A stretch of DNA of 64,000 nt, from NCBI GenBank assembly GCA_944332715.1, contig CALVKN010000068.1, forward strand, positions 11,572 to 75,571, written 5' to 3'. Position numbers and translations under genes: made by a program. Origin of the DNA: an uncultured Bacilli bacterium. GTDB lineage: Bacteria > Bacillota_I > Bacilli_A > RF39 > UBA660. This document shows positions 14,238-26,875 of the stretch, in pieces (position 1 is the stretch's first letter; every line of letters starts with the position of its first letter). Under the pieces are notes generated by a model that had not been told where the DNA came from, did no database searches, and saw only the letters and a program-made list of their open reading frames with translations.

Positions 14238-14699
14238 TTACGGCGTCGCGTCCGCCTCCGGTTCGTCAAAGGTGATGTACAGGGTCAGGCAGCCGGGCAC
14301 ATAGCTGACGCTCAGCCATTTTTCCCCGTCCGACAACAGGTTGCCGATGGACACATAGTCCTGCCCCGCAATTTGCTCCGATACCTCTTCGATCACGGAA
14401 AAGCCGGCCTGTTGCAGGCGTGAGAGATAGTCGACGCAGTCCGCCTCGCTCAAGCCGGTCAGGCTGACGCTGCAGTTCCCGCGCGCCGTGTCGAGCATGG
14501 CCCAGTCGACCGTGCCCGGCGGGACGGGGAGGCCCTCCGTGTATGCGTTGGCCGGCCACATCCCTTCGTCCAGCATTTCGATGGTTTCGGGCGGCCGGCC
14601 GCCTGCGCTCTCTCCGGCGTCGGACGGCCCGTCCTGTTGAGAACACGCGCCGGAACAGAGCAGCAGCAGCACGGCGGATACACAAAGAAACTTTTTCAT
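14238..14699 (-). CDS. Putative lipoprotein, function unknown
   Basis: MKKFLCVSAVLLLLCSGAC signal peptide with a lipobox-like cysteine. GGAGG at -7. ATGA overlap with the upstream gene's stop. Confidence 0.7.
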   Translation of the reverse strand: MKKFLCVSAVLLLLCSGACSQQDGPSDAGESAGGRPPETIEMLDEGMWPANAYTEGLPVPPGTVDWAMLDTARGNCSVSLTGLSEADCVDYLSRLQQAGFSVIEEVSEQIAGQDYVSIGNLLSDGEKWLSVSYVPGCLTLYITFDEPEADATP

Positions 14700-15160
14700 A
14701 TGTTACCTCCTTTTTTGCGGATCGTGCGGAGGATCAAAACGACGGCGATGCAGGCGGCGAGCACGCCGGCCGCCAGCGCAATGTGCGGGACGTCAGGGCC
14801 AAAGGTCCCCACAACCTGCAGGTTCGTCATGGCGTCCGCCTGCCCGATGGCGCCTTCCGGCGCCCAGCCGGGCCGCGCGCCCGCATAGAGCGCGAAAGCC
14901 GCCGCCGCGACGGCGAGCGCGGAACCGCCTGCGACAAGCCCCCTGCGCCTGGCCCGCGCCGCGCGATCGACGCCGAACTGCTCCGCGATGCTTTCGGCAA
15001 ATTCCTGCGGCGTCCCCAGCCGCTCGATCACCTGCCGCTCCGTCTCCCCGTGCTCCAGCGCGGAGGCAAACGCCTCGTCCAGGTCGCGCGCGACTTTCCG
15101 CCTGACGCTTGGCGACCAGTTGAGTTCCCGTTTCACCTGCCTGATATATTGCCGTTTCAT
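14696..15160 (-). CDS. DUF1700-family membrane protein, the usual partner of PadR regulators
   Basis: N-terminus MKRQYIRQVKRELNWSPSVRRKVARDLDEAF, a C-terminal transmembrane segment, and ATGA overlap with the padR stop. The track ORF extends upstream; I treat that extension as spurious. Confidence 0.7.
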   Translation of the reverse strand: MKRQYIRQVKRELNWSPSVRRKVARDLDEAFASALEHGETERQVIERLGTPQEFAESIAEQFGVDRAARARRRGLVAGGSALAVAAAAFALYAGARPGWAPEGAIGQADAMTNLQVVGTFGPDVPHIALAAGVLAACIAVVLILRTIRKKGGNI

Positions 15161-15516
15161 GTTGCTTCCTCCGTTTGCCGGTAGCCGGCGATAAAACCGT
15201 TGACGCATTGCGCATAGCCCGACCAGAACCCGATCAGCTCGTCGAGCGTCTCCTTGCCCCTGTCGGTCAGCGAATAGTACTTTTTCGAGCCGCCGTTTGC
15301 CCTGGCCGGAGCCAGCCGGCACCGGACGAGGCCGGCCTCCTCCAGCCGGTACAGGATGGGGTAAATCGTCCCCTCCTTTGCAGATCCCCACACGGCCGCG
15401 CTGGCGTTCAATGCGGTGAGGATCTCATAGCCGTACGTTTCCCTGCACCCGATCAGGCACAGGAGCACCATTTCCAGGGAACCTTTTTTAAACTGCTGCA
15501 CATATCTGCTGTCCAT
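15157..15516 (-). CDS. PadR-family transcriptional regulator
   Basis: Winged-HTH PadR motifs (GYEILTAL...GTIYPILYRLEEAGLV...KKYYSLTDRG). ATG at 15516 with a GAGG Shine-Dalgarno. Confidence 0.85.
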   Translation of the reverse strand: MDSRYVQQFKKGSLEMVLLCLIGCRETYGYEILTALNASAAVWGSAKEGTIYPILYRLEEAGLVRCRLAPARANGGSKKYYSLTDRGKETLDELIGFWSGYAQCVNGFIAGYRQTEEAT

Positions 15517-15738
15517 GCGCGCCGCCTCAAACAAAATCTACTACTTAGCAATACTAAGTAGTAGCTTGATTATATCGACAATGGGGTGCGCTGTCAAGAG
15601 GCGGTTCGGCGCCTGCGGGGCGCGGACGGTGGGCAGGGCGCCCTGCAAGCGGGAGGGTTGCCGCATCGCGGCGGGCGCGCGCCTGCCTGCCCGTCCGCTT
15701 CCGGCGCCGGCGCCGCAAGGGGGGGGCGCGCCGGAGCG

Positions 15739-16920
15739 TCAGGCGCGCCGCGCGCTCGCGCGGTAATCACGGGGCGTTTTGCCCATGTAGCGCTTGAAGG
15801 TCTTGCAAAAGTAGTTGGCGTCCGGCATGCCGCAGTGCATGCCCACGGCCTGCACCTGCAGGTCGGTAGAGGCGAGCAGAAAGGCGGCGCGGTCCATGCG
15901 GCGGCGCGTCACAAAATCGGTGAGCGTCGAGCCGGTCTCACGCCGGAACAGCAGCGACAGGTGGCCGGGGCTGATGTTCAGCCGCTGCGCGAGCGCGTGC
16001 AGGCTGAGGTCGGCCGTGAGGTCGGCGTCCATGTGCAGGATGGCGTCGCGCACCGGGGCGGAGCGGTACGGCATGGCGCGCGCGTTCACGAGCGCGCAGT
16101 AGTCCTTCACCATGGCGAGGAACAGCTGCCGCGACTGGCCGGCGGACTGCAGCGCCTCGATGCGGAAGGCGTACTGGCGCGACAGCCCGTCGATATAGAG
16201 CGGATGCACGCCGCCGGCCTCCACCGCCTTGCGCAGCAGCGTGTTCATGATGATGGCATAGTTTTTGAAGTTGCGCACCGGGTCGGACGCGCGGCTCTCG
16301 ATTGCGGTCTGCCCGGCCATGGCGATGAGCCCGGTGGCCTCCTGCGTCCGGCCGAGCGAAACGGCCTGCAGCAGCCGCCGCTCATAGGCGTACCGCTCCT
16401 CAAGCAGCCGCGCTTCAAACGGTTCGGTGGACGGCACGTCGGCAGGTTCCACCAGGGTGGAGGCGGAGAAGTTCGTGTGCTGCACGGAAAAGGCTTCCAC
16501 CCCACCAAAGAGCGTTTCGCCAAGCGTGGCGAGCAGGGCCTCCATGACCCCGTCGTGCAGCAGCGCCAGGCTGCAGTAGTAGCGCCGCAGCGCGGGCAGC
16601 AGGCGTGGCGGCAGGTGCAGCCGGTCGAGCAGGGGGATGATCGCCTCGTCTGTCATCTCTTCATGCAGGTACGGGCCGATCAGCAGCGCCTCTCCCGTGT
16701 CCGGCAGGAGCGTACAGATGTAGCGGCAGGAGAAGTCGTCGTCCGCCAGATAGATGGCGTTTGGCTGCAACGTGGAAAATGGCGGGAACGGCGGCAGCCC
16801 GGCCTGCCGGCGCAGGCCCAGATCGACCTCGGGCGGCGCGTCCGGGGGGAAGCGCAGCACCTGTACGTTGAGCCGGTCGAGCAGCCGCCGCAGAAACAGC
16901 AGTTCGGGTTCGGGGAGCAT
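15739..16920 (-). CDS. AraC-family transcriptional regulator (C-terminal HTH_AraC), divergent from the transporter-GH2 gene
   Basis: C-terminal region ...LSLHALAQRLNISPGHLSLLFRRETGSTLTDFVTRRRMDRAAFLL...YFCKTFKRYMGKTPRDYR is a typical AraC HTH. ATG at 16920 with AAAGGAGG at -7. Confidence 0.85.
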   Translation of the reverse strand: MLPEPELLFLRRLLDRLNVQVLRFPPDAPPEVDLGLRRQAGLPPFPPFSTLQPNAIYLADDDFSCRYICTLLPDTGEALLIGPYLHEEMTDEAIIPLLDRLHLPPRLLPALRRYYCSLALLHDGVMEALLATLGETLFGGVEAFSVQHTNFSASTLVEPADVPSTEPFEARLLEERYAYERRLLQAVSLGRTQEATGLIAMAGQTAIESRASDPVRNFKNYAIIMNTLLRKAVEAGGVHPLYIDGLSRQYAFRIEALQSAGQSRQLFLAMVKDYCALVNARAMPYRSAPVRDAILHMDADLTADLSLHALAQRLNISPGHLSLLFRRETGSTLTDFVTRRRMDRAAFLLASTDLQVQAVGMHCGMPDANYFCKTFKRYMGKTPRDYRASARRA

Positions 16921-17214
16921 GGAGGAGCCTCCTTTCCTGGCGTTGCGCGCGGCCGGCGGGCGGGTCGCGCGGGGGAAAGACATGAAAATTTTACGAATAA
17001 TGGAGAGAATTTTACTATCTGCTCCGGGAATATGTTGATTATACTGTATTTGTACCAATTCCGAAACCCCTGATTTTTTCGCAAACAAAGGCCGCGGGCG
17101 GCACGCCGCCCGTCACACAGGCAGTATGGACGGATTTTGCCCGGCCGCCGCGCCGGATACATAGACGACGACCAAAAGGACAACAACATATATAAAAAGG
17201 AGGAGTTTCCCAAC

Positions 17215-20200
17215 ATGGAAGGCAAACCGACCGCCGCCCACCGCCCGTTCGGCATGCGGGACAACCTGGCGTATGCCGCGGGCGACTTTGGCTGCAACAT
17301 GAGCTTTGCGCTCAAGGGCACGCTGGTCATCTTCTGGACGCAGTACATGGGCATGGACTCGCTGCTCTACGCCGCGCTGCTGCTCATCGTGCAGGTCTGG
17401 GACGCGATCAACGACCCGCTCATCGGCGCGCTGATCGACGCCGACCGCCGCCGCTACAAGCTCGGCAAGTTCAAGGCGTACATCTTCGCCGGCTCCATCG
17501 GCCTGGTGGTCGCGGGCGCGCTGTGCTTCATCCCGTGGCCGAGCGCGCCGGACATCGCCAAGAACATCCTGTTCGTGGCCGGCTACATCATCTGGGACGC
17601 GTTTTACACCGTGGCCAACGTGCCCTACGGCTCGCTGCTGTCGCTGATCTCGTCCGACCCGGGCGACCGCGCGGCGCTGTCCACCTGGCGCAGCATCGGC
17701 TCGCTGCTGGGCAACATCGCCACGATGGTGCTCATCCCGCTGCTGATCTACGACGCGAACCAGAACATTGTCGGCACGCGCGTGTTCTTTGTGGCGCTGA
17801 TCATGGGCGTGATCGGCTTTGCCGCCTTCCAGTTCATGATCCGCAACACCGAGCAGCGCGTGGAGGCGGAGCCGCCCGCCAAGGCAGAGAAACAGAAGTT
17901 CAACGTGTTCAGGGCCATGGGCAACTTCGTCAAAAACCGCGCCGCCGTCGGCACGACGCTCGCGGCCATGGGCATGTTCATCGGCATGCAGGGCGCGACC
18001 GCGGCCGTGACGGTGCTGTTCCAGTCGTATTTTAAAAACGTGCAGCTCTCCGGCGTCGTGCAGATGTTCGCCATGCTGCCGATGATCGTCTTTGCGCCGT
18101 TCATCCGCCGGTTCTCGGTCAAATACGGCAAAAAGGAGATCTCGGCTGTCGGGTCGCTCTGCAGCGTGGCCGCCTGCGTGCTGCTGCTCGTGCTGCCCAT
18201 CACGCCGAACACCATGGGCATGGTGCTGTATGTGGCGTGCCTGCTGCTGTACAGCCTCGGCGTGGGCGTGTACAGCTGCGTGAGCTGGTCGCTCATGGCC
18301 GATGCGATCGACTACAACCAGTGGCGCTTCGGCATGCGCGAGGAGGGCACGGTGTACTCGCTCCACTCCTTCTTCCGCAAGCTGGCGCAGGGCCTCGGGC
18401 CGTCGCTCGTGCTCGTGATCATGGTTGCGCTCGGCTATGTGGAGGAGAACCAGGGCGCGCAGACGGCCGACGTGGCGCTGAACATGCGCTATCTGGTGGC
18501 CGGGCTGTACCTGTTCAGCGCGCTGATGCAGTTTGTGTCGCTGGCGTTTATCTACAACATCGATAAAAAGACGCTGGCGCGGATGAACGCGGAGCTGCTG
18601 GCGCGCAACGAAGGGGATGGCGGGGCCGCACAGGCGCCGGATCCGGGGTGTGCCTGTGCGCGCGACGTCCGCCCGCTGAACGACGGCTGGACGTTCACCA
18701 AGCCGGGGCAGCCGGCGCAGGCCGTCACGCTGCCGCACACGTGGAACGCCGAGGACGGGCAGGACGGCGGCAACGACTACTATCGCGGCACCTGCCGCTA
18801 CGAGCGGCGCATCGCGCGCAGCGAGCTGCCGGCCGGCGAGCGGGTGTACCTCGAATTGCAGGGGGCGAATTCCTCTGCGGACGTGACGCTCAACGGGACG
18901 CCGCTCATGCACCACGACGGCGGCTACTCCACGTGGCGCGTGGATTTGACCGACGCCCTCCGGGATGACAACGTGCTGACGGTGGACGTGGACAACGGCG
19001 CGAACGAGCGCGTCTACCCGCAGATGGCCGACTTCACGTTCTATGGCGGGCTGTACCGCGAGGTCCGGCTCATCGGCGTGCCGGCCTCGCACTTCGACCT
19101 GGATTACTGCGGCGGCCCCGGCATCGCCGTCACGCCCGCCCTGTCGGGGGACGACGCGGACGTGACCGTGCGCGTGTGGCTCACCGACGCGCGGGAGGGG
19201 CAGCAGCTTCGCTATACGCTGTCCGACGCCGCGGGCGAGGCCGTGGCCACGCAGACCGTGCCGGCCGGGCAGGACGAGGCCGTGCTGCACATTGCGGGCG
19301 TGCGCCGCTGGCACGGGCGCAAGGACCCGTACCTGTACACCGCCCGGGTGGAGCTGCTCGACGGGGAGGCCGTGCTCGACTGCGTCGGCGCCCGCTTCGG
19401 CTGCCGCACGTTTGCAATCGACCCGGACCGCGGCTTCCTGCTCAACGGGGAGGAATACCCGCTGCGCGGCGTTTCCCGCCACCAGGACTGGAAGGGCATT
19501 GGCAACGCGCTGCACGCAGAGCACCACCGCCGCGACGTCGACCTGATCTGCGAGCTGGGCGCGACGACCGTGCGCCTTGCCCACTACCAGCACAGCCAGA
19601 CGTTCTACGACCTGTGCGACGAGCGCGGGCTCGTCGTGTGGGCGGAGATCCCGTACATCTCGCGGCACATGCCCGGCGGGCGCGAAAACACGCTCTCGCA
19701 GATGCGCGAGCTGGTCGTGCAGAACTACAACCACCCGTCCATCGTCGTGTGGGGCCTGTCCAACGAGATCACGATGAACGGCGAGAACGACCCCGACCTG
19801 ATTGAGAACCACCGCCTGCTCAACGACCTGTGCCACGAGCTGGACGCGACGCGCAAGACGACCGTCGCCGTGGTGTCGATGTGCGACATCCACGCGCCGT
19901 ACCTGTCCATTCCGGACGTGGTGTCCTACAACCACTACTTCGGCTGGTACGGCGGCGACACGGACATGAACGGCCCGTGGTTCGACCACTTCCACAGCGA
20001 GCGGCCCGATTTGCCCATCGGCATCAGCGAGTACGGGTGCGAGGCGCTGGATTGGCACACCTCCGACCCGCAGCAGGGCGACTACACCGAGGAATACCAG
20101 GCGTATTACCACGAGGAGCTGATCCGGCAGATCCGCGAGCGCCCGTACCTCTGGGCGACGCACGTGTGGAACATGTTCGACTTTGGCGCCGACGCGCGCA

Positions 20201-20865
20201 ACGAGGGCGGCGAGAACGGGCAGAACCACAAGGGCCTGGTCACGTTCGACCGCGCGTACAAGAAGGACGCGTTCTATGCGTACAAGGCGTGGCTGAGCGA
20301 CGAGCCGTTCGTGCACCTGTGCGGCAAGCGGTATGTGGACCGCGTGGAGGACGTCACGCGCGTGACGGTGTATTCCAACCAGCCCGAGGTGGAGCTGCTC
20401 GTCAACGGCAAGCCGTTTGCCCGCCAGCAGGGCGACCTGTTCTTCTACTTTGACGTGCCAAACGCCGGCCGCACCCGGCTCACCGCCGTCGCGGGCGATT
20501 GCCGCGACGAGAGCCACATCCGCAAGGTCGCCAAGTTCAACGAGGCGTACCGCCTGCGCGAGACCGGCGCCGTGCTCAACTGGTTCGACGTCACCGCGCC
20601 GGAGGGCTACTTCTCCCTGAACGACAAGGTCGGCGCCATCCTCGCCGTGCCGGAGGGCAAGGCCCTGTTCGAGCAGCTCATGGCCAAAATGGGCGAGGGT
20701 AAAAAGGAGTTCGCCGGGTTCCAGCTTAACAAGAGCATGATGCGCATGATGGGCGGGTTTACCGTGCTGCGCCTCACCGGCATGCTCGGCATGGCCAACA
20801 TCCACCTGACCAAGGAGCAGCTGCTTTCGCTCAACGAGCAGCTCAACCGCATCCCCAAGCCGTAA
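17215..20865 (+). CDS. Single ORF fusing a GPH-family (glycoside-pentoside-hexuronide:cation symporter, MFS) transporter to a glycoside hydrolase family 2 enzyme (beta-galactosidase/beta-glucuronidase-like)
   Basis: Residues about 1-480 are a 12-TM GPH transporter (MelB/GusB-like: ...DNLAYAAGDFGCNMSFALKGTLVIFWTQYMG...). Residues about 490-1216 are GH2 (LNDGWTFTKP...TLPHTWNAEDG...NGANER...VRLAHYQHSQTFYDLCDERGLVVWAEIPYIS...WGLSNEI...EYGCEA). No stop between the two domains in this frame. AGGAGG upstream of the ATG at 17215. Confidence 0.8.
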   Translation: MEGKPTAAHRPFGMRDNLAYAAGDFGCNMSFALKGTLVIFWTQYMGMDSLLYAALLLIVQVWDAINDPLIGALIDADRRRYKLGKFKAYIFAGSIGLVVAGALCFIPWPSAPDIAKNILFVAGYIIWDAFYTVANVPYGSLLSLISSDPGDRAALSTWRSIGSLLGNIATMVLIPLLIYDANQNIVGTRVFFVALIMGVIGFAAFQFMIRNTEQRVEAEPPAKAEKQKFNVFRAMGNFVKNRAAVGTTLAAMGMFIGMQGATAAVTVLFQSYFKNVQLSGVVQMFAMLPMIVFAPFIRRFSVKYGKKEISAVGSLCSVAACVLLLVLPITPNTMGMVLYVACLLLYSLGVGVYSCVSWSLMADAIDYNQWRFGMREEGTVYSLHSFFRKLAQGLGPSLVLVIMVALGYVEENQGAQTADVALNMRYLVAGLYLFSALMQFVSLAFIYNIDKKTLARMNAELLARNEGDGGAAQAPDPGCACARDVRPLNDGWTFTKPGQPAQAVTLPHTWNAEDGQDGGNDYYRGTCRYERRIARSELPAGERVYLELQGANSSADVTLNGTPLMHHDGGYSTWRVDLTDALRDDNVLTVDVDNGANERVYPQMADFTFYGGLYREVRLIGVPASHFDLDYCGGPGIAVTPALSGDDADVTVRVWLTDAREGQQLRYTLSDAAGEAVATQTVPAGQDEAVLHIAGVRRWHGRKDPYLYTARVELLDGEAVLDCVGARFGCRTFAIDPDRGFLLNGEEYPLRGVSRHQDWKGIGNALHAEHHRRDVDLICELGATTVRLAHYQHSQTFYDLCDERGLVVWAEIPYISRHMPGGRENTLSQMRELVVQNYNHPSIVVWGLSNEITMNGENDPDLIENHRLLNDLCHELDATRKTTVAVVSMCDIHAPYLSIPDVVSYNHYFGWYGGDTDMNGPWFDHFHSERPDLPIGISEYGCEALDWHTSDPQQGDYTEEYQAYYHEELIRQIRERPYLWATHVWNMFDFGADARNEGGENGQNHKGLVTFDRAYKKDAFYAYKAWLSDEPFVHLCGKRYVDRVEDVTRVTVYSNQPEVELLVNGKPFARQQGDLFFYFDVPNAGRTRLTAVAGDCRDESHIRKVAKFNEAYRLRETGAVLNWFDVTAPEGYFSLNDKVGAILAVPEGKALFEQLMAKMGEGKKEFAGFQLNKSMMRMMGGFTVLRLTGMLGMANIHLTKEQLLSLNEQLNRIPKP

Positions 20866-20888
20866 CGGACGGGCGCGGCAGACAAAAC

Positions 20889-20930
20889 AAAACGCCCCCG
20901 GCATATGCCGGGGGCGTTGGCGTTGTTTGG
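20889..20930. terminator. Bidirectional Rho-independent terminator between the convergent GH2 gene and the cytidylate-kinase-like gene
   Basis: AACGCCCCCGGCATATGCCGGGGGCGTT hairpin flanked by A-rich and T-rich runs. Confidence 0.7.
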
Positions 20931-20999
20931 GGCCGGGCGGCGCCTTGGCCGCTTTTTGGGCGCACCGCCTCAAAAGGGCGACACAGGGGGCGCGGGCGC

Positions 21000-21629
21000 T
21001 TACGGGCGCGGCAGCGCGGCCGCGCGCACGAGCAGCTCCGCGCAGCCGTCCACGCCGAAGCGGCCGCAGTCCAGCATCAGGTCGTAGGCGTCGTAGCTGC
21101 CCCAGCGCTTGTCGGAAAAATACGAGTAGTAGCCGGCGCGCTGCCGGTCGATCTGGCGGATGCGGCTGCGGGCGGTGGCCTCGTCGATGCCGTAGTAGCG
21201 CACGCAGCGCTGCACGCGCGTCTCGAGGTCGGCGTGGATGAACGCGGTCACGAGCCCCGCTTGCCCGCGCAGCACATAGTCCGCGCAGCGGCCGATGATC
21301 ACGCAGTCCTCCGTCTGTGCCAGCTGGCGGATCACCGCGGACTGGGCGAGGAACAGCCGGTCGGTCAGGGGCGTTTGCACCATGCCGGCCGCCGTGCCGC
21401 GCGCGGCGCCGAGGCCGAGCGGCGCGTTGTAGAGCAGGCCGTTCGTGGGGCGCTCCTCCGCCTGGGCGGCGACCTCCGGGTCCAGCCCGGCGCGCTTTGC
21501 CGCCAGCGTGAGCAACTCGCTGTCGTAAAAGGAGAAGCCCAGCCTGGCCGCCGTCCGGCGGCCGATTTCGCGTCCGCCGCTGCCATACTGGCGGCCGATG
21601 GTGATGATGCGGTGCGGCTGTGATTCCAT
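21000..21629 (-). CDS. Cytidylate kinase-like family protein
   Basis: IITIGRQYGSGGREIG P-loop-like N-terminus typical of the cytidylate kinase-like (PF13189) family. AAAGGAGG before the ATG at 21629. Confidence 0.7.
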   Translation of the reverse strand: MESQPHRIITIGRQYGSGGREIGRRTAARLGFSFYDSELLTLAAKRAGLDPEVAAQAEERPTNGLLYNAPLGLGAARGTAAGMVQTPLTDRLFLAQSAVIRQLAQTEDCVIIGRCADYVLRGQAGLVTAFIHADLETRVQRCVRYYGIDEATARSRIRQIDRQRAGYYSYFSDKRWGSYDAYDLMLDCGRFGVDGCAELLVRAAALPRP

Positions 21630-21742
21630 GGGACAGACCTCCTTTGCCTGCATCGGTGGTGGGGGAATGGTTCCTCTTTGTCATTATACCGCCGTCCGGC
21701 AGCGGCAAACAAGCAAAACATTTTGCGGCCGCGCATCAGGCG

Positions 21743-24434: not shown

Positions 24435-25853
24435 ATGGAAACGCGACAGAAACCCGGCTCCCACGGGCGGCGCAGGGTGGTGCTGTGGGCGGTGCTGATC
24501 GTCCTCGCCATCGCGCTCGTTGCCGCCGCCGTGCACCTGTACCGCGTGCTGCGCGCGCCGCGATCCATGTTCCAGGGGCCGGATCAGGCGGCGCTGGAGG
24601 CGTCGCCGGAGCAGGCGGGCACGGCCGGCCAGACGCCGGCCCCGGCCCCGACGCAGGCGCCGCTGCCGGAGGGCATGGTAAACTTTCTCGTGTTGGGCGT
24701 GGACGCGCTGTCCGACGGGTCGGGCAAGACGTACAGTGCGGACTGCCATACCGATACGATCCTCGTGGCGGCGGTGGACTTTGACCGGGACACGGTAGAC
24801 CTCATCTCCATCCCGCGCGACACGTTCCGCCGGGTGCCCGGCAGCACCGGGTATTATAAGATCAACGCGGCCGTCAACGTCGGCGGCGGGGCGGACGCGC
24901 CGGGCGGCGCCGGGTATTTGCGCACGTGCGAGACGGTGTCCGAAATGCTCGGCGGGATGCCGGTGGACTACTATGTGGCGCTGCATTTCGACTCCGTCAT
25001 CCAGCTCGTGGACGCGCTGGGCGGCATCGACTATGAGCTCGAGGGCTGGATCAACGAGGGCGGGCGCCACTATGACGCCGGCATGCAGCACCTGGACGGG
25101 CAGGGCGTGCTGGACTATCTGCGCGTGCGCAAGAGCTCGCGCACGAACATGGACACCGGCGACCAGGCGCGCGTGGAGCGGCAGAAGCGGATGCTCGTGG
25201 CCATCTATGAAAAGGTGCGCGAGCAGGACATGCTGCGCCTCATCCCGACGCTGCTGACCACGCTCGAGGGCGTGCACACCAACCTGAACCTGTCGCAGAT
25301 GCTGGCGCTCGCCAACTACGGCAGGAGCGCGGTGAGCGCCGACCAGATCCGCATGTATACGATGGGCGGCGCGTCGCGCCAGTCGGAGGACACGCCCTGG
25401 AATTTCGTGTTTACCGACCAGGAGGACCGCATTGCGCTCATCGAGACGGTCTACGGGGTGACGGCGGAGCCGGAGGCCTGCTGCTCCTATGCGCACCTGC
25501 TGTACCTCGAGCGGTACGGCTTTGAGAGCATTCGCACGCAGTCGATCGTGCGGGAGATGTGCGCCGCGGTCGACCCGGACGCGCTGGACGCGGAGCAGCG
25601 CGAGCTGTATGAAGCGGTGCTGGCCGGCCAGGAGACGCTGCAGCAGCGCATGGACGAGGCGGCGGCCTTCCTCGTGGAGACGCCGAAGCCCTCCGCGGAA
25701 CCGTGTGTGGCCGCCCGCACGGAGGCCCGCAGGCTGCAAAAGGCGGCGGACGCGTTTGCCAAGGCGTATGGCTATGAATTGCCGCACTGGTGGGTGCAGG
25801 ACGACTGGTGGAACGACACGTACATCAACGACGTGACGGTGGATTTCCGCTGA
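24435..25853 (+). CDS. LytR-CpsA-Psr (LCP) family cell-envelope phosphotransferase
   Basis: N-terminal TM segment, then an LCP core (NFLVLGVDA...DTILVAAVD...ISIPRDT...YKINAA). Confidence 0.85.
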   Translation: METRQKPGSHGRRRVVLWAVLIVLAIALVAAAVHLYRVLRAPRSMFQGPDQAALEASPEQAGTAGQTPAPAPTQAPLPEGMVNFLVLGVDALSDGSGKTYSADCHTDTILVAAVDFDRDTVDLISIPRDTFRRVPGSTGYYKINAAVNVGGGADAPGGAGYLRTCETVSEMLGGMPVDYYVALHFDSVIQLVDALGGIDYELEGWINEGGRHYDAGMQHLDGQGVLDYLRVRKSSRTNMDTGDQARVERQKRMLVAIYEKVREQDMLRLIPTLLTTLEGVHTNLNLSQMLALANYGRSAVSADQIRMYTMGGASRQSEDTPWNFVFTDQEDRIALIETVYGVTAEPEACCSYAHLLYLERYGFESIRTQSIVREMCAAVDPDALDAEQRELYEAVLAGQETLQQRMDEAAAFLVETPKPSAEPCVAARTEARRLQKAADAFAKAYGYELPHWWVQDDWWNDTYINDVTVDFR

Positions 25854-25960
25854 CGGCAGCTCCGCCGGCCGCCGGGCCTGCGCGCGCAAGGCGGCCGCGT
25901 CCTGAGGGAAAATGTATCGCGGACCGGATTTTTTGACATAAGTGAGTGAGGAGAACGCAT

Positions 25961-26875
25961 ATGCTGGATATTGCGATTATCGGCGGCGGGCCGGCCGGGC
26001 TCTCCGCGGGGCTGTACGCCATGCGCGGCGGCGCGGACGCCGCGCTCTACGAGGGCCTGTTTGTGGGGGGCCAGGCGACCAAGACGCACCGGATCGACAA
26101 CTATCCCGGGTTCCGGGAGGGCGTGGAGGGCTTTCAGCTCGGCGTGGAGCTGGAGCAGCACGCGGCGCGCTTCGGGCTTACGGTGACGTATGCCACCGTG
26201 GAGTCGGTCGACCTGGCGGGCGACGTCAAGAAGCTGGTCGTGGACGGCGAGACGGTCGAGGCGCGGACGGTGATCCTCGCCATGGGCGCCAAGCCGCGCC
26301 CGCTCGGGCTGCCGCGCGAGGCGGAGCTGACCGGCAAGGGCGTGTCGTACTGTGCCACGTGCGACGGCGCGTTTTTCAAGGGGAAGCAGGTGGCCGTGGT
26401 CGGCGGCGGCGACACCGCCGTTTCCGACGCGCTGTACCTGGCCCGGTTCGTGGAGCGGGTGTACGTCGTGCACCGGCGCGGCGAGCTGCGCGCGGCCAAA
26501 TCGCTCCAGCAGGCGGCGTTTGCCGAGGAGAAGGTCGAGTTCGTGTTCCACAGCGTCGCGGAGGCGTTCGTGGGCGAGGAGAAGGTCGAGGGGCTGACGG
26601 TCAAGGACGTCCGCACCGGCGCGCTGCGCACGCTGCCGGTCTCGGGCGTGTTCGCGGCGGTGGGCATCGTGCCGGAGTCCGGGCTCGTGCGCGGGCAGGT
26701 CGCCTGCACGGAGGACGGCCGCATCCGCACGAACGAGTTCATGGAGACGGACGTGCCGGGCGTGTACGCCGCGGGCGACATCCGCACGACGCCGCTTCGG
26801 CAGGTGATCACCGCCTGCGCGGACGGCGCGGTGGCCGCCACGCGCGCGCTGGAATATTGCAGCGAGCGGGGCTGA
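25961..26875 (+). CDS. trxB: Thioredoxin-disulfide reductase
   Basis: IIGGGPAGLSAGLYA FAD motif, CATC redox-active disulfide, GGGDTA NADPH motif. ATG at 25961 with a GAGGAG Shine-Dalgarno. Confidence 0.9.
   Translation: MLDIAIIGGGPAGLSAGLYAMRGGADAALYEGLFVGGQATKTHRIDNYPGFREGVEGFQLGVELEQHAARFGLTVTYATVESVDLAGDVKKLVVDGETVEARTVILAMGAKPRPLGLPREAELTGKGVSYCATCDGAFFKGKQVAVVGGGDTAVSDALYLARFVERVYVVHRRGELRAAKSLQQAAFAEEKVEFVFHSVAEAFVGEEKVEGLTVKDVRTGALRTLPVSGVFAAVGIVPESGLVRGQVACTEDGRIRTNEFMETDVPGVYAAGDIRTTPLRQVITACADGAVAATRALEYCSERG

Follow-up and report, generated by a model that had tools for sequence, protein, structure and literature searches.

A young, lineage-restricted deletion fusion of a GPH-family transporter gene with a putative beta-glucuronidase gene

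The locus considered here raises a simple question: does an open reading frame (ORF) that runs from a sugar transporter into a complete glycoside hydrolase of family 2 (GH2), with no stop codon between them, represent a genuine fused gene and, if so, how did it arise and what might its product do? The ORF (1216 codons, stop at 20865) occupies positions 17215-20865 of the forward strand in a stretch of 64,000 nucleotides (nt) from an uncultured Bacilli bacterium (contig CALVKN010000068.1, positions 11,572 to 75,571), hereafter the window. It is a genuine, evolutionarily young and lineage-restricted deletion fusion within a cassette of an AraC-family regulator, a GPH-family transporter and a beta-glucuronidase (GUS) of the flavin mononucleotide (FMN)-binding type, and amounts to a recent natural variation on an ordinary, widespread gene pair, not a new protein class.

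The length of the ORF is, in itself, weak evidence because the GC content of this region is 65-70% and, at such a composition, a spurious ORF of 1531 amino acids (aa) arises on the opposite strand (17113-21708), covering the entire fusion gene; this antisense ORF is a by-product of high GC content and codon bias and does not correspond to a gene, and several further long overlapping ORFs are found in the same region of the window. The fusion is established by domain matches and homolog alignments, not by ORF length. In the Pfam search, MFS_2 covers residues 20-451 (5e-64, profile positions 2-427 of 427), and is followed by the GH2 N-terminal sugar-binding domains (~499-623), the GH2 Ig-like domain (637-731), the GH2 TIM barrel (739-1024, 5e-30), DUF4982 (1047-1082) and a C-terminal domain that extends to residue 1216. 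The initial annotation had described a transporter and a full-length GH2 enzyme in one continuous frame, and this description is borne out by the ORF itself, the Pfam and NCBIfam matches and the alignments with homologs; all the strings that it quoted are located in the 1216-aa protein, namely the linker, which falls in the region of residues 465-492 (NEGDGGAAQAPDPGCACARDVRPLNDGW), WGLSNE at residues 846-851 and EYGCEA within SEYGCEA, which begins at residue 938. The ATG at 17215 is the real start codon because a GGAGGAG ribosome-binding site (17199-17205) lies 9 nt upstream and the N-termini of homologs (MEGKPTA...) agree with this start; an alternative start, TTG, is found upstream at 17137.

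Whether the missing stop codon could be an error is answered by the recurrence of the junction. Fourteen contigs from NCBI and ENA, the largest of which is 253 kb long, encode the exact 1216-aa protein. When the exact flanking proteins were looked up, the AraC regulator was found on 23 contigs and the downstream cytidylate kinase-like protein on 21, and all the flank-carrying contigs that reach the junction contain one continuous ORF, either as a complete gene (14 cases) or truncated by the end of the contig (1046, 913, 968, 925 and 785 aa). The 101 nt around the junction (window 18590-18690) are identical across seven samples from several studies and different assemblers (ERZ28615057, ERZ24773308, ERZ24773520, ERZ28614000, ERZ28617187, ERR4096360 and ERR4096551), with the fused junction present in SPAdes-style NODE contigs, scaffolds and Logan contigs, in both NCBI and ENA records. 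An error of sequencing or assembly, be it a collapsed repeat or the lost stop that the initial annotation had named as the alternative, could draw on the 21-nt tandem repeat of variable copy number that sister lineages carry near the junction, given that such regions are error-prone, but the window's own junction contains no tandem repeat, and the segment deleted here is unique sequence without repeat units. Because an identical junction was recovered in at least seven samples, by several assemblers and different pipelines, this explanation is strongly disfavored, with a lost stop being ruled out and an artefact of any kind appearing highly improbable, so that the reality of the fused gene is close to certain. 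The predicted full-length product is ~135 kDa in size, and the predicted tryptic peptide across the junction is NEGDGGAAQAPDPGCACAR.

The origin of the fusion can be gleaned from its closest relatives, which were recovered by a junction-centred query (residues 330-630) combined with a cluster look-up, whereas a full-length word-indexed search, saturated by the two-domain query, missed them. At 90% identity, the cluster of the fused protein consists of 379 members, and those listed are transporters of 478/479 aa and GH2 proteins of 744 aa. One member, P0282, is encoded on a contig of the same species (L097; Logan ERR13965911) that shares the synteny of the window, with IMP cyclohydrolase, a 153-aa ORF, HAAS, PadR and AraC on one side and a cytidylate kinase-like gene on the other. 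In L097, the cassette consists of two genes: a 479-aa transporter that ends with ...AAAEPAAQ and a TGA stop is separated by a 23-nt spacer (gcgggcAGGAGGAGGatgcgcat), including a AGGAGGAGG ribosome-binding site, from an ATG-led 744-aa GH2 gene that begins with MTHDAKQPCG-RDVRPL... and whose product is 97% identical to the GH2 part of the window protein. The window and L097 share 98-100% nucleotide identity over ~9 kb, outside a patch at ~18055-18870 where the identity drops to 75-93%.

Relative to L097, the window lacks 3 + 44 = 47 nt (3n+2), and because the GH2 gene of L097 is offset by two frame positions, this loss brought the two frames together; the lost sequence includes the stop codon of the transporter, the ribosome-binding site, the ATG of the GH2 gene and eight GH2 codons. 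Within the fused gene, Cys479 (TGT, 18649-18651) stands at the position of the TGA of L097, codon 480 (18652-18654) spans the deletion joint, codons 481-482 are codons 9-10 of the GH2 gene, and Arg483 is residue 11 of the L097 GH2 protein and is aligned with residue 2 of the crystallised Rh2GUS, so that no conserved element of the fold was lost. The fusion linker, as delimited by this codon map and by DNA alignments to L097 and to the sister lineage L084, thus comprises 17 residues, mostly Gly, Ala and Pro (EGDGGAAQAPDPGCACA, residues 466-482, 18610-18660). Compared with L084 (85.5% nucleotide identity), the window lacks 136 nt (3n+1), which again fits the frame offset. The transporter tail in the L084 lineage is encoded by a 21-nt tandem repeat, (AAEDAGx)~6, and the linker of the window, EGDGGAAQAPDPG, looks like a degenerate remnant of repeats of this type. 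Reads with the sequence GCGGGCAGGAGGAGGATGCGCATATGACCCATGATGCCAAGCAG at this locus would mark the unfused allele. The 69-nt unfused junction is itself identical in 13 loci.

The patch of reduced identity around the junction (18055-18870, forward strand), as delineated by the identity profiles, is a recombination tract: residues 1-280 of the transporter and GH2 residues from 553 onwards are L097-like, and residues ~281-550 are closer to L084 without being identical to it. Two fused contigs from different studies (L112 and L113) carry the L097 variant at each of the 34-41 sites that vary from 18033 to 18306 and the window variant from there through the junction, which puts the left boundary of the tract in these contigs after 18306 and, because of this switch, places the fused junction on two haplotypes. 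Because these differences are no more than a few hundred nt away from the ends of the contigs, the L112/L113 haplotype could conceivably be an assembly chimera of mixed-strain samples.

How widespread is the fusion? A species-level scan, with one genome per GTDB species, yielded 80 loci at 45-69% identity from Oscillospiraceae, Acutalibacteraceae, Faecousia, Vescimonas, Lachnospiraceae and Christensenellaceae (L003-L082), and in a stop-to-stop ORF analysis none of these 80 loci contains a single ORF over both domains. In 63 of them, the ORF for the transporter (query ~9-468) precedes one for GH2 (query 478/483-1216), and the other 17 encompass a GH2 gene without an adjoining transporter ORF. 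The transporters of these relatives stop, mostly with TAA, soon after ...MNAEL-x-x-R..., and are separated from the GH2 genes, the products of which begin with M-R-x-[IV]-x-N-[LF]-N, by 4-400 nt that in many cases contain a hairpin and a GGAGG site. When 1.84 billion cluster representatives were searched exhaustively by HMMER with residues 17-1216, no two-domain match appeared in the top 150, down to 400 bits; the best score, 1098 bits, belongs to a 756-aa GH2-only protein, the odd long matches are GH2 enzymes joined to GH1, esterase, GH20 or carbohydrate-binding modules, and a Pfam screen of the long or odd matches found no hidden transporter (MFS) domain. The junction-centred query produced 6751 matches, the best 120 of which each cover at most 53% of the query, with none spanning the junction. 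These searches omit the cluster of the query itself, so that the missing self-match carries no information. In the literature, nothing relevant on natural transporter-glycosidase fusions was found, which is absence of evidence only.

An ancient, conserved family of bifunctional importer-hydrolases, for which nothing speaks beyond the ORF itself, is at odds with the lack of a fused gene in any of the 80 species genomes, with the lack of a two-domain protein in the top HMMER matches and of a match across the junction in the best 120, and with the unfused allele of the same species; for this clade it is refuted, and its probability is extremely low. The same observations, together with a junction lesion that is unique to this lineage, do not support any reading of the locus as a conserved or designed importer-hydrolase architecture. 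As findings that would count against its own interpretation, the initial annotation had named orthologs uniformly present as two genes and a unique point change at the junction: the orthologs are indeed unfused and the lesion is indeed unique, but it consists of a 44-47-nt deletion with the loss of the stop codon, not of a point change.

The GH2 half (residues 483-1216 and the stop codon, 18661-20865) has full-length matches among the structures of FMN-binding gut GUS enzymes, which align with residues 476-1216 (6MVH/8GET, 1182 bits; 6MVG, 1148; 7KGZ, 848; 6MVF, 662). Of these, 6MVH/8GET is Rh2GUS of Roseburia hominis, 6MVG is the R. gnavus GUS and 6MVF is the F. prausnitzii Fp2GUS (PMC9377255); 7KGZ is probably Rh3GUS. 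The three-domain core of GH2 is complete, and both catalytic residues identified from motif positions are conserved in the alignment to 6MVH: Glu851 (WGLSNE, 19765-19767), the predicted acid/base catalyst, and Glu939 (SEYG, 20029-20031), the predicted nucleophile. The motif Asn1004-His-Lys1006 (20224-20232) is the same as in Rh2GUS; this N-x-K motif recognises the carboxylate of glucuronate and marks glucuronide-specific GH2 enzymes. Tyr631 and Trp655 (19105-19179) are aligned with Tyr154 and Phe179 of Fp2GUS (residues 177 and 202 of the 6MVF chain, due to a 23-residue tag offset), the two positions at which any aromatic residue is the criterion for an FMN binder (bioRxiv 10.64898/2026.06.20.733316), with Trp in the window enzyme in place of the Phe of Fp2GUS. 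The ~150-residue C-terminal domain, which raises the activity of Rh2GUS eightfold (PMC9377255), is present as well. The best-scoring NCBIfam model is 'beta-glucuronidase LacZ4' (NF050095), but the score of 557 bits, with a cut-off at 950, excludes the protein from that family.

Taken together, these motifs point to a beta-glucuronidase of the FMN-binding/No-Loop subclass that would hydrolyse glucuronides. The catalytic Glu residues, the N-x-K motif, the aromatic positions and the C-terminal domain are common to the window enzyme and to Rh2GUS, R. gnavus GUS, Rh3GUS and Fp2GUS, but these are known as soluble, stand-alone proteins, whereas the window enzyme is covalently joined to a 12-transmembrane-segment (12-TM) transporter. 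A similar pairing of a GPH glucuronide importer with a GH2 beta-glucuronidase is found in the E. coli gus operon, which encompasses uidA (GUS), uidB/GusB (GPH glucuronide transporter), uidC and the regulator GusR, but there the genes are separate, the enzyme precedes the transporter, the GUS is of the Loop-1 type and the regulator belongs to the TetR type. Seven residues past the nucleophile, at codon 946 (window 20050-20052, EYGCEALD), a derived Asn-to-Asp replacement is observed on the window branch.

The transporter half (residues 1-465, 17215-18609), which ends in the conserved basic tail DKKTLARMNAELLAR, is a predicted 12-TM cation:glycoside symporter domain of the GPH (MelB/GusB-like) type. 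Apart from MFS_2, it matches the NCBIfam model TIGR00792 'gph' above the cut-off (244.5 bits against 231.35); the score for the GusB/UidB equivalog NF007353, 168 bits, is far below the cut-off of 528. The alignment with MelB (4M64) is end-to-end (residues 13-462 against 4-448), at a score of only 83 bits. The helix-II motif VWDAINDP (D63, N66 and D67) is aligned with IWDAINDP of MelB, where the residues of the cation site in helix II are D55/N58/D59, and the position of MelB Asp124 is taken by Asn135. These features argue for membership in the GPH family (TC 2.A.2), and it is solely the linkage to GUS that suggests glucuronides as the substrate; the motif and the end-to-end alignment are shared with the melibiose permease MelB (4M64, 7L17). 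Crude hydropathy analysis shows 11 clear TM segments, with TM1 below the threshold, and the end-to-end alignment with MelB supports 12. The Lys/Arg-rich loops at 75-87, 210-250, 298-308 and 361-390, along with the basic tail, fit an N-in/C-in topology under the positive-inside rule, and hydropathy reveals no hydrophobic segment after residue 470. The C-terminus of the transporter and the GH2 domain are, then, predicted to be cytoplasmic, in agreement with the placement of the hydrolase at the cytoplasmic face by the initial annotation. A GPH carrier with an extra soluble domain at the cytoplasmic C-terminus is known: LacS of Streptococcus thermophilus carries a IIA-like regulatory phosphotransfer domain of ~160 residues that is conserved across species, which indicates that the GPH family tolerates C-terminal fusions. 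In the window, in contrast, the added part is a catalytic enzyme of 734 residues that is found in a single lineage.

These observations suggest the following scenario for the fused gene. The ancestral state would be an AraC-regulated two-gene cassette, in which a GPH cation:glucuronide-type symporter was followed by a cytoplasmic FMN-binding-type GUS, the arrangement that is kept in the same-species strain L097, in the sister lineages L084, L091 and L098 and in all the remaining relatives. A short deletion inside the recombination tract removed the stop codon, the ribosome-binding site, the start of GUS and GUS codons 1-8 and left the frames in register, and a single mRNA with one ribosome-binding site would now direct the synthesis of a 1216-residue polypeptide. 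Because there is no in-frame ATG, GTG or TTG between residues 457 and 544, GUS is translatable only within the fusion. The 12-TM importer would be inserted N-in/C-in, with GUS tethered by ~35 residues (the basic tail and the 17-residue linker), imported glucuronides would be cleaved at the inner face of the membrane at a fixed 1:1 ratio of importer to enzyme, and a dimeric GUS could sit beneath two transporter protomers. The coupling of uptake to cleavage envisaged by the initial annotation would be one outcome of such a tether; a neutral or mildly harmful fusion is equally conceivable. The preferred interpretation, with a probability of roughly 0.55, is a genuine young fusion that tethers an intact importer to an intact GUS, both activities being most likely retained; such retention, judged by itself, is slightly favored.

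The record of selection on the fused gene is limited by its low variation. The window and two other contigs (L001 and L002) show no differences in the 3651 nt of the fused gene, and the fused alleles vary only by one recombination tract. When the changes outside the tract were polarised against L097 with outgroups, six nonsynonymous and seven synonymous changes were assigned to the window branch, compared with two and nine, respectively, on the L097 branch. For the window branch, this ratio lies under what neutrality predicts (binomial P = 0.037), and a comparison with the unfused branch reveals no significant difference (Fisher P = 0.21), in a test that is underpowered at 13 and 11 changes.

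Several considerations weigh against the retention of both activities in a tethered protein. In the fused gene, GUS has no strong AGGAGGAGG site of its own and its level depends on how much of a membrane protein is made, a possible cost. Rh3 GUS is a dimer (PMC8748916), and tethering could disturb its assembly. An advantageous fusion would be expected in other lineages with the same gene pair, but none arose or persisted. The replacement N946D is close to the nucleophile, at a position occupied by Asn in both L097 and Rh2GUS. Because the fused alleles are nearly invariant, purifying selection after the fusion is not demonstrable, and the six nonsynonymous and seven synonymous changes may predate the fusion. 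Furthermore, the function of the fusion is a prediction from sequence.

It is possible, although distinctly less probable, that the fusion is a recent neutral-to-deleterious lesion, such that the polypeptide is made with one or both activities impaired, through misfolding, failed dimerisation of GUS or too little enzyme, and the locus is heading towards pseudogenisation, with other GUS genes of the same genome perhaps cushioning the loss. The confinement of the fusion to one young, nearly invariant lineage, the loss of the ribosome-binding site and start of GUS, and the derived N946D near the nucleophile would all fit such decay, as would the decay of related cassettes by deletion (in P0001/L083, transporter residue ~321 is joined in frame to GH2 residue ~856) and the presence of the cassette in at least three genomic contexts, which makes paralogous or replaceable copies plausible. 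However, all 1216 codons are intact, as are all the motifs for catalysis and binding, the fold has kept its conserved elements (R483 corresponds to Rh2GUS residue 2), the C-in topology suits a cytoplasmic enzyme, several studies have recovered the allele, in many samples and on two haplotypes, and the ratio of nonsynonymous to synonymous changes is lower on the window branch than neutrality predicts.

Another scenario, in which the two halves are separated after translation by proteolysis of the linker, or GUS is produced by weak initiation at Met457, would yield a phenotype close to the two-gene state. The linker is rich in Gly, Ala, Pro and Asp and is probably exposed, and ATG457 is in frame, 26 codons ahead of the GH2 fold, but this codon lacks a Shine-Dalgarno-like sequence (the 20 nt upstream are ATAAAAAGACGCTGGCGCGG), no further in-frame start occurs up to residue 544, and cleavage is pure conjecture, which makes separation a poor bet. 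Scarcely better are the odds that the fusion is adaptive, with the 1:1 tether channelling drug, hormone or dietary glucuronides from uptake to cleavage; if this were the case, the identical junction on two recombinant haplotypes in many samples would amount to the gene-specific spread of a beneficial allele, and the locus would be the first case in nature of a transporter-glycosidase fusion that confers a functional advantage.

The tethered, intact importer and GUS thus remain the preferred interpretation of what is a strain-level polymorphism of an ordinary, widespread cassette, with no sign of benefit in the present sequence data. The fused strain and the near-isogenic two-gene strain provide a natural comparison for the effects of coupling uptake to hydrolysis on flux, substrate range and inhibitor access. 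FMN-binding GUS enzymes belong to the principal enzymes by which the glucuronides of mycophenolate, regorafenib and triclosan are reactivated in the gut, and for this class the reactivation of mycophenolate and other drug glucuronides is documented (PMC9377255, PMC8748916). The locus also preserves a stepwise record of a Rosetta-stone fusion between adjacent genes, with a recombination tract followed by the 44-47-nt deletion of a stop codon, a ribosome-binding site and a start codon.

The surroundings of the fused gene match those of the two-gene cassette. The divergent 393-aa AraC-family regulator (15739-16920, reverse strand) noted by the initial annotation is confirmed by matches to HTH_18 and HTH_AraC at residues 310-388, and the intergenic region between the two genes (16921-17214), read as a putative promoter, contains the sole ribosome-binding site of the fused gene. 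Purine genes are separated from AraC by a PadR-family regulator, a HAAS-domain protein and a 153-aa lipoprotein-like ORF (14238-15534, reverse strand), which are also present in L097. An Rfam scan of the window gave no match, and no second copy of the transporter half or of the GH2 half is found within the window. Among the close relatives inspected, the same divergent AraC gene also precedes the transporter-GUS pair (L083, L084, L087, L090, L091 and L097); in three loci (L098, L101 and L103), AraC is split into ORFs of 268 and 129 aa by a frameshift or stop, with the transporter and GUS intact.

Across at least 63 species-level genomes of Clostridia (Oscillospiraceae, Lachnospiraceae, Acutalibacteraceae and Christensenellaceae), a GPH transporter is encoded directly upstream of an FMN-type GUS. 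This pairing contradicts the statement that, among gut taxa, GUS operons with glucuronide transporters are confined to Enterobacteriaceae (PMC7132129). The cassette is found in three contexts: that of the window (A), one with DHH and Oxidored_FMN on one side and ABC/NIL on the other (B; L084 and L098), and one with SerRS, sigma-70 and VanZ on one side and PNP_UDP on the other (C; L091-L096). A 479-aa protein (P0287) considered as a syntenic unfused allele was rejected because of its different genomic context. Between the window and L091, transporter residues 41-280 are 98-100% identical at the nucleotide level, compared with only ~80-95% for the GH2 genes. Because three neighbourhoods carry near-identical cassette segments, frequent recombination or horizontal gene transfer between species, or gene conversion between paralogs, appears to be implied.

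The 21-nt tandem repeat of the sister lineages (L084, 6402-6525, and L085; consensus GAAGACGCCGGGACGGCCGCA, ~6 copies) encodes the (AAEDAGx)n tail at the C-terminus of the transporter, and the lengths of the sister transporters (489, 496, 503, 510, 517 and 524 aa) reflect copy-number polymorphism of this repeat, in steps of 7 aa. In another species, at 64-72% identity, a 691-aa ORF downstream of a divergent AraC gene (L083, 5001-7076; P0001, ENA ERZ28636811; two contigs) joins transporter residues ~1-321 to GH2 residues ~856-1216, and is an independent internal deletion of ~1.6 kb or an assembly collapse of the cassette. A stand-alone ortholog of the transporter in NCBI (P0002, 701 aa) contains exact duplications of internal segments, such as DKIAYAAGDFGCNMSFALKGTLTVFWTQYMGISEAGMAMLLVLVQVWD, which occurs twice, and looks like a mis-assembled or mis-polished record. 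A GH2 protein of the same clade (P0017, 937 aa; 48% identical to the GH2 part of the window protein) has an N-terminal extension of ~200 residues with a DUF308 membrane-protein repeat and may be another, independent membrane-anchored GUS-like enzyme. Finally, 43 of the 44 differences between two fused-strain contigs that are identical elsewhere fall within ~1.8 kb at window ~25060-26860 (L002, 13846-15643), in the LytR_cpsA_psr / Pyr_redox_2 region, and this cluster looks like a further recombination tract in a nearly clonal background.

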